Shown one piece after another: positions 61,505 to 61,784 of a stretch of DNA of 64,000 nucleotides. The notes under the pieces are model-generated. The model searched no databases, had not been told where the DNA came from, and was given only the letters and a program-made list of their open reading frames with translations. The DNA is from an uncultured Methanosarcinales archaeon (lineage in GTDB: Archaea > Nanobdellota > Nanobdellia > Woesearchaeales > CAZYIM01). The stretch is from NCBI GenBank assembly GCA_964647565.1, contig CAZYIM010000002.1, positions 16,235-80,234 of the forward strand. The letters run 5' to 3'. The first letter of the stretch is position 1. Each line of letters opens with the position of its first letter. A program made the translations under genes and the position numbers.

Positions 61505-61784
61505 AAATAAGCATTCATCCACGGCACAGACGCCCTCCTTTCAGGAGTGCTACCCGCCCAAGGGTTACGCCCCTTGAGGACGTGTGCGACATCCTTAAAA
61601 ATATGCTTTGCGTATTTTTGGGACACCAAAAATCTTAAAGATTTTTCAGTGTTCGCCTTTGGCTCAGTCCCACTCCTTATCTAGCCCTGCGGGAATGTAT
61701 ATTAACGCCTCGCCTGGCCATGGTTCGCAAGCCTCTTTGCGAACCTGAGAACGAACGAAGTAAAGTGACCATGAATGCTTATTT
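61505..61784 (+). repeat. GC-rich structured repeat element, copy B (terminal inverted repeats AAATAAGCATTCAT / ATGAATGCTTATTT)
   Basis: 280 nt. Homologous to copy A, but carries a roughly 65-nt AT-rich two-hairpin insertion (61579-61643) and a different yet still self-complementary first hairpin (CTCCT-TTC-AGGAG versus GGACTTTC-TGC-GAAAGTCC in copy A). Confidence 0.55.

Follow-up and report, generated by a model that had tools for sequence, protein, structure and literature searches.

Two copies of an intergenic repeat in an archaeal chromosome, one of which carries an additional A/T-rich segment with two palindromes, raise the question of what kind of element the repeat represents, and of whether the extra segment extends a loop of a structured RNA or interrupts one of its helices. 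The analysis described here covers the window (the whole 64-kb stretch of DNA in which both copies reside) and a series of related loci, and bears upon an earlier note on this DNA, in which the segment had been read as hairpins inserted into a tolerated loop of a structured RNA. The explanation that we prefer, and to which we give about an even chance of being correct, is that the two copies are paralogues that encode, on the plus strand, a small structured RNA, approximately 220 nt long and restricted to its lineage.

The chromosome is archaeal in its gene content, which includes an archaeal-type ProRS, a Ski2/DSHCT helicase, a PilB3-like ATPase and a DUF357 protein. The closest relatives of the PilB3-like ATPase (at 60-71% identity) all derive from Woesearchaeota/Nanoarchaeota MAGs, and the organism belongs among uncultured Woesearchaeota-like (DPANN) archaea. 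The lineage is poorly sampled, since the PHP protein encoded beside copy B finds a best relative of no more than 51% identity among 5.8 billion proteins. DPANN archaea possess tiny genomes in which almost no non-coding RNAs have been characterized, and two structurally compensated 220-nt paralogues would constitute a new RNA family in that group; if the copies are merely a MITE-like repeat, the finding is an ordinary one.

Copies of the element and their surroundings

A repeat search of the 64-kb window, together with MAFFT alignment, identifies two colinear repeats, and their alignment on one strand bears out the prior claim that both lie in the same orientation. The copies, and a sequence shared upstream of them, are as follows:

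Copy A, 43557..43776, plus strand: 220 nt, 52% G+C versus 40% G+C for the genome
Copy B, 61505..61784, plus strand: 280 nt
A/T-rich box upstream of copy B, 61486..61502 (43522-43539 for copy A), plus strand: AGATTTCT(A)TTT(G/A)ATGAT, with a similarity score reached by 9 of 2000 shuffles

The copies are 81% identical across their first 84 nt and 92% identical across their last 133 nt, and no open reading frame common to both was found. The core of the element is 52-53% G+C in a genome of 40% G+C, which counts in favor of an RNA gene. Copy A is located within a 304-nt spacer that extends from a pilin-like gene to a wHTH gene of a conserved pilus cluster, and is antisense to both of those genes; copy B lies 3' of a PHP gene and 5' of a ParDE-like pair, in the sense orientation, and is found with 100% identity in four further metagenome contigs (L001-L004). 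The 18-nt A/T-rich box that precedes both copies (p ~0.005) is separated from the terminal helix of the predicted RNA (P1, below) by 17 nt in copy A and by 2 nt in copy B, and is a possible promoter element.

A predicted fold shared by both copies

The minimum-free-energy folds of copies A and B share five helical elements (P1 through P5), of which P2 corresponds to GGCAC/GUG(A)CC in both folds and the remainder are located as follows:

P1, 5' strand in copy B, 61505..61518, plus strand: pairs with 61771-61784, 14 bp, perfect
P1, both arms in copy A, 43557-43570 and 43763-43776, plus strand: one U.G pair
P3, copy B 61532..61550 and copy A 43584-43602, plus strand: variable hairpin, with both bases changed in four pairs that still form
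P4, copy B 61553..61693 and copy A 43605-43686, plus strand: long arm, with the insertion of copy B in its tip module (GRC/GUC, internal loop, GCC/GGC)
P5, copy B 61722..61745 and copy A 43714-43737, plus strand: hairpin GGUUCGCAAG-CCUC-UUUGCGAACC, 10 bp, invariant between the copies

The long arm comprises the helices CCC/GGG, AGGGUUA/UAGCCCU, GAGGA/UCYUU, GUG/CAC and GRC/GUC, and ends in a GCC-UUU-GGC tip. Both whole copies fold better than shuffled sequences on the plus strand (z = -4.4 for copy A and -6.3 for copy B), and the corresponding values on the minus strand are weaker (-2.8 and -5.7, respectively). Within P3, seven of eight pairs are kept despite substitutions at 10 of its 19 positions, with four double-sided compensatory changes. 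Three one-sided changes (U.G to C-G in P1, G.U to G-C in P4c, and G.U to A-U in P4e) are all wobble-compatible on the plus strand only, and correspond to A.C mismatches on the other strand, and a tetraloop changes from UUCG to UGCG, both UNCG-class sequences. Copy B has lost two pairs; its P3 contains one mismatch, and several other pairs are stronger than in copy A. The resulting tally of base-pair maintenance, like the fold comparison as a whole, draws upon two full sequences and one partial relative, and amounts to four double-sided and three wobble-type changes that keep their pairs and two pairs that are lost, which is suggestive of an RNA gene.

Because the copies from other metagenomes are all identical, the evidence base consists of two sequences and covariation is minimal. 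Counting against an RNA gene are a 3' domain that folds differently in copies A and B, a partly different pairing (with another partner for GUGUGC) that is preferred by RNAalifold when applied to the two copies, and the resemblance of the terminal helix to terminal inverted repeats; the compensatory pairs, for their part, could partly stem from template-switch mutation in a DNA palindrome. Considered together, the predicted fold, the wobble changes, the compensation and the strand asymmetry favor a plus-strand RNA under structural selection.

The insertion in copy B

The invariant blocks GTGTGCG and CGCCTTTGGCTCAG are separated by 5 nt in copy A (GCTTT) and by 65 nt in copy B (61589-61653). 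The gained sequence, as placed by a three-way alignment, and the hairpins that it is predicted to form are as follows:

B-specific insertion, 61592..61651, plus strand: net gain of exactly 60 nt, 30% G+C
Insertion hairpin 1, 61594..61622, plus strand: CUUAAAAAUAUGC-UUU-GCGUAUUUUUGGG, with G.U pairs and a T5 tract at its end; weaker on the minus strand
Insertion hairpin 2, 61623..61652, plus strand: ACAC.AAAAAUCU-UAA-AGAUUUUU..GUGU, with a T5 tract inside

The earlier note had described a segment of roughly 65 nt at 61579-61643, made of two AT-rich palindromes and situated exactly between GTGTGCG and the next conserved block; the alignment of the two copies confirms the length, the flanking blocks and the existence of both palindromes, and shifts the coordinates, which had been placed approximately 10 nt too far to the left. 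The insertion is 30% G+C versus 53% for the rest of the element, and neither the window nor any of the fetched loci contains a second occurrence of it. On the plus strand, the 65-nt segment is predicted to fold with an energy of -18.9 kcal/mol (z = -4.65), which none of 200 shuffles equaled, versus -13.9 kcal/mol (z = -2.5) on the minus strand; hairpins that contain G.U pairs and fold better on the plus strand are as expected for a feature at the RNA level. A 19-nt stretch within the PHP gene (61231-61249), reverse-complementary at 17 of 19 positions to the junction and start of the insertion (61588-61606), was also noted, and was dropped as a chance-level match by BLAST (E 0.17).

When mapped onto the predicted folds, the 60 nt fall on the 5' side of an internal loop of P4, near the tip of that arm, where they add two self-contained hairpins, so that the loop becomes a four-way junction. 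The loop in question is bounded by GRC/GUC (copy A positions 84-86/103-105) and by the tip helix GCC/GGC (91-93/97-99), with UUUC on its 5' side and UCA on its 3' side, and the insertion site is unpaired in the RNAalifold pairing as well. Disruption of a conserved helix had been named beforehand as the outcome that would speak against an extended loop; no helix common to copies A and B is broken, and the fold of copy A alone adds a U87-A102 pair to the GGC/GUC helix. The placement of the hairpins in a loop is upheld by the two folds, whereas their being tolerated there would have to hold despite two T5 tracts that the insertion brings with it, oligo-T being a signal for transcription termination in archaea. 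That the hairpins extend a tolerated loop in a structured RNA is plausible, and is consistent with every test that was run, in what is a very thin sample.

A probably related arm in a tRNA-Ser intron

A screen of 80 related loci for G+C-rich, ORF-free islands led to a tRNA-Ser(CGA) gene with a 91-nt intron, found in a related Woesearchaeota MAG (locus L092, contig CAZOPU010000011.1, 17855-18029). Part of that intron aligns with positions 62-107 of copy A (UACGCCC...GCGRC.UUCGCC..GGCUCAGUCCC), with a score of 22 under +1/-1 scoring, compared with 16 for the runner-up among 24,404 windows (1.25 Mb). Given a score tail that drops approximately three-fold per point, those values correspond to a modest similarity with an empirical E of ~1e-3, a figure that is somewhat optimistic because the query region was picked after the match had been seen. 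In the fold of the pre-tRNA, the matching segment stacks its helices just as the approximately 48 colinear nucleotides of the long arm do: a 3-bp stem (AGG/CCU), a bulged C, GAC/GUC, an AUUC/UCA loop, and GCC/GGC. The two differ in their surroundings, in that the arm in L092 prolongs the anticodon stem and is spliced out as an intron at the canonical 37/38 position, whereas the arm of the element is part of a free-standing unit of 220 nt, without tRNA exons and without a bulge-helix-bulge at its base.

Judged by this sequence comparison, the long arm and the arm of the L092 tRNA-Ser(CGA) intron, which belongs to another Woesearchaeote, are probably homologous, and the match suggests that the module either moves between RNA genes or represents a shared protein-binding element. 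Since the 60 nt are absent from both the L092 intron and copy A, the insertion was gained in copy B. Compared with random DNA, the exons of the L092 tRNA display no greater similarity to the rest of the element, and six other intron-bearing tRNAs display no similarity to the element (alignment scores to L080 and L040 obtained with lenient gaps were discarded as noise). Introns of 28-91 nt are present in seven of the 18 tRNA genes in the loci of relatives (L025, L040, L053, L056, L063, L080 and L092), so that long tRNA introns are common in this group.

Through the partial match, a free-standing RNA would become connected with the poorly understood question of how archaeal introns arose and spread. 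A more ambitious proposal, that the copies belong to an undescribed class of free-standing and possibly mobile structured RNAs of DPANN archaea that have an arm in common with tRNA introns, either protein-binding or self-propagating, strikes us as improbable; if it were true, archaeal tRNA introns and independent RNA genes would exchange structured modules, and the element would offer a handle on intron spread.

Searches for homologues and rejected identities

Rfam 15, the families of which include archaeal RNase P, SRP, C/D and H/ACA RNAs, HgcC-G, OMEGA/HEARO and retron msr, returned no match to any part of the window at gathering thresholds, and only chance-level matches (mir-84, gut-2 and snoR66) to the element and its flanks at E <= 10. 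BLAST searches of phage and plasmid collections with copy A gave no match; four conserved blocks and one gapped motif found only chance matches among viral contigs (as checked by covariance model, by nhmmer and by eye); one 20-mer found five matches among metagenome contigs, all in unrelated high-GC coding sequence; and one 19-mer found none among GTDB genomes. A covariance model (R1), nhmmer and sensitive blastn identified no full-length homologue in 80 Woesearchaeota pilus-ATPase loci (1.2 Mb). Contigs of six PHP homologues were fetched, in none of which is the spacer after PHP of sufficient length for the element; three of them were searched with R1 and yielded nothing, the others having served for gene maps only or fallen outside the search. 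A six-frame pseudo-protein search of 5.8 billion predicted proteins, aimed at mis-called ORFs lying over homologues of the RNA, likewise found nothing. ARAGORN reports no tRNA in the window, and with introns allowed reports none in copy A or copy B at its default and 90% thresholds, under which the tRNA-Ser of L092 was detected as a control; an 80% threshold produced inconsistent tRNA calls only.

A number of specific identities were rejected along the way. A bulge-helix-bulge intron (two 3-nt bulges on opposite strands, with a 4-bp helix between them, at the boundaries) was dropped both for the whole element, in which the P1/P2 junction has bulges of 4 nt and 1 nt separated by 3 bp (2 bp in copy B), and for the insertion, in which ACAU/GUGU could pair but only 1 nt intervenes before the next helix. 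Retron ncRNA, TnpB/IscB omega RNA and IS110 bridge RNA were set aside on finding no reverse transcriptase, TnpB/IscB or IS110 recombinase near either copy; RNase P, because a GAAAGUCC-like motif of copy A is not kept in copy B; and the template repeats of DGRs, because the differences between the copies are not adenine-specific. SRP RNA, 6S or Y RNA, C/D or H/ACA RNAs, K-turn motifs, and permuted or split tRNA were also considered and dropped. Absent from known RNA families, the element is best filed as an orphan candidate structured RNA.

The interval between the copies

The copies had been said to mark the boundaries of an accessory stretch (43.8-61.5 kb), for which a deviating composition was to be looked for. 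Their position at the two ends is correct, and the notion of a unit did not survive. The 17.7-kb interval has a G+C fraction of 0.402 versus 0.396 elsewhere, and its tetranucleotide distance of 0.103 falls within the range of other segments of equal size (0.076-0.111), so that both measures are ordinary. It encodes two cytidylate-kinase-like proteins and PrcB_C, Lrp/AsnC, DUF357 and PHP proteins, as well as toxin-antitoxin genes, and its ends correspond to syntenic core in relatives (pilus genes on the left, and a MazE-like/PHP pair on the right). Pfam scans of ORFs found no integrase or transposase in the interval or near the copies, and within approximately 3 kb of both copies identified pilus proteins, PHP, MazE-like, ParE and acyltransferase families; two small ORFs (53423-53647 and 60322-60612) were left out of the scan of neighbors. 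Among metagenome contigs, neither a third copy nor a form in which the interval is missing was found, the matches being identical contigs of the same species only.

Two direct repeats that point the same way at a distance of 18 kb, with toxin-antitoxin genes between them, might be taken for att-like or recombination repeats that delimit a mobile or accessory island of that length. This idea is largely refuted, and we give it hardly any credence: the composition, the housekeeping genes, the missing integrase or transposase, the core genes at both ends and the lack of any contig with the deleted form all speak against it, and the repeats, which are 8-19% diverged over 220 nt and each form a complete structured unit, are unlike att duplications.

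Alternative explanations for the copies

The copies may also be viewed as MITE-like non-autonomous mobile DNA, with the 14-bp ends serving as terminal inverted repeats for a transposase encoded elsewhere, the copies themselves being old insertions in unrelated spacers, and the internal hairpins being either incidental or of service to the DNA form. We consider this a live rival, though an unlikely one. The ends (AAATAAGYATTCAT / ATGAATGCTTATTT) are inverted, perfect or near-perfect, and nearly invariant in both copies, and the element is small, lacks an ORF and adopts an orientation independent of the neighboring genes. Both sites moreover look 'filled' relative to those of relatives: in approximately 50 related genomes the gap from pilin to wHTH measures 42-180 nt or holds an extra ORF of ~115 aa, and never contains the element (in L079 an unrelated GC-rich element with a terminal stem fills the same gap), while after PHP a gene begins within a few nucleotides in four of five mapped relatives and the 173-nt spacer in L012 is too short for the element. 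Against these points, target-site duplications, which may have decayed, are lacking (copy A is flanked by ...GATAGA and TATGAT..., and copy B by ...TGATAT and CTTATT...); only two copies, 8-19% diverged, are found in 64 kb; the ends are found nowhere else in the window or in 120 loci; and no transposase is encoded nearby. The copies also share their upstream flank, which a cut-and-paste element would not carry, and the four compensatory pairs, the UNCG loops and the wobbles confined to the plus strand point to selection on RNA. The two readings are compatible, in that a structured RNA gene can be dispersed.

Copy B alone might be a decaying paralogue, inactivated by the insertion and by a shorter spacing from promoter to P1, in which case only copy A would be functional; we find this rather doubtful. 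The insertion is derived (being absent from copy A and from the L092 arm) and compositionally foreign at 30% G+C, and P3 contains a mismatch; owing to the two T5 runs, and to an upstream box that lies 15 nt closer to P1 than in copy A (2 versus 17 nt), copy B may be truncated or decaying. Outside of the insertion, however, every helix of copy A is kept, with several pairs strengthened, and the part 3' of the insertion is 92% identical to copy A, so that any decay would be recent; the hairpins of the insertion, too, display the strand asymmetry of an RNA. Descent from an intron-containing, tRNA-Ser-like gene, which would make the copies pseudogenes or a tRNA-derived repeat, would account for the match of the central arm to the tRNA-Ser(CGA) intron and for an arrangement in which P1 and P2 close a multi-helix junction with a long arm at its middle, loosely in the manner of a cloverleaf; long tRNA introns are also common in these genomes (seven of 18 tRNAs). 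Such descent is nevertheless very unlikely, as ARAGORN finds no tRNA with or without introns beyond its inconsistent calls at the 80% threshold, the L092 exons are no closer to the rest of the element than random DNA, neither a T-loop nor a D-loop signature is present, and the conservation and compensation between the copies argue against pseudogenes.

The proposed RNA and its likeness to known systems

As paralogous genes for a structured RNA, the copies would each specify a molecule closed by a 14-bp helix of its own ends, within which a rapidly evolving hairpin, the long irregular arm and the invariant hairpin of 10 bp would be arranged. Copy B would have gained a 60-nt, A/U-rich expansion of two hairpins just below the tip of the long arm, with the shared helices left intact. 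We infer that the element is transcribed, that its RNA may act in trans (as a scaffold that binds protein, for example), and that the RNA would tolerate the expansion instead of being inactivated by it. The insertion in itself is of minor weight; it would mark a loop that accepts extra hairpins and provide a natural variant of the fold.

Orphan structured small RNAs are known from other archaea, in particular the Hgc RNAs of Methanocaldococcus and Pyrococcus, which form G+C-rich islands in A+T-rich genomes. The element resembles them as a G+C-rich, ORF-free intergenic island with a stable fold and paired ends, and differs from them in lacking a match to any Rfam 15 family (Hgc included) and in being represented by two diverged paralogues. 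Structured MITEs, such as the Correia elements of Neisseria and the SM-type MITEs of Sulfolobus, are similarly short, intergenic and devoid of ORFs, with terminal inverted repeats and either orientation relative to genes; unlike them, the element displays no target-site duplication, and has two diverged copies, compensated hairpins, strand-specific wobbles and a G+C-rich core. The addition of hairpins at a loop or junction, with core helices kept, recalls the expansion segments and variable stems of RNase P, SRP, tmRNA and rRNA, although the element is none of these RNAs, and matches no Rfam family even at E <= 10; its tolerance of the expansion is putative.

Additional observations in the window and related loci

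The pilus cluster (window 38192-48716) is syntenic in more than 50 Woesearchaeota MAGs (loci L023-L102), and consists of pilin-like genes, VWA, a pilin-like protein of 318 aa, wHTH, a coiled-coil protein, the PilB3-like ATPase and T2SSF. Of the relatives that have the pilin-like and wHTH genes in the same order, about half encode the extra ORF of ~115 aa at the position of copy A. A canonical TATA box (TATAAAAA, 43515-43522) lies ~26 nt 5' of the ATG of the minus-strand wHTH gene (start 43492), a distance that suggests a leaderless wHTH mRNA; the same box is situated 35-42 nt upstream of copy A on the plus strand. The element that occupies the corresponding spacer in L079 (8445-8589) is G+C-rich and 145 nt in length, with a terminal stem of ~20 bp; its sequence is unrelated to copy A, and it has no Rfam match and no second copy among the loci.

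In L092, the 3' end of the tRNA-Ser gene (CCGGGTCACGGCG) is duplicated ~50 nt downstream, and is followed by a tRNA-Val gene (18154-18227) and a tyrosine-recombinase-like ORF (18168-19088), such that the region at 17855-18100 looks like an integration hot-spot.

Elsewhere in the window, a G+C-rich, gene-free stretch extends from a DUF4382 gene to a NUDIX gene (6812-7025), with ends that can pair (GCGCCAAGG / CCTTGGCG), a T9 run (7014-7022), a partial direct repeat (6961-6992 / 7032-7063), no Rfam match and a fold z-score of -2.7, and may represent another unannotated RNA. A further pair of repeat blocks (18027-18549 and 25990-26515), 77-79% identical and 7.97 kb apart, falls within a pair of paralogous ORFs, each of ~470 aa, on either side of a large ORF and an RHS-repeat protein.
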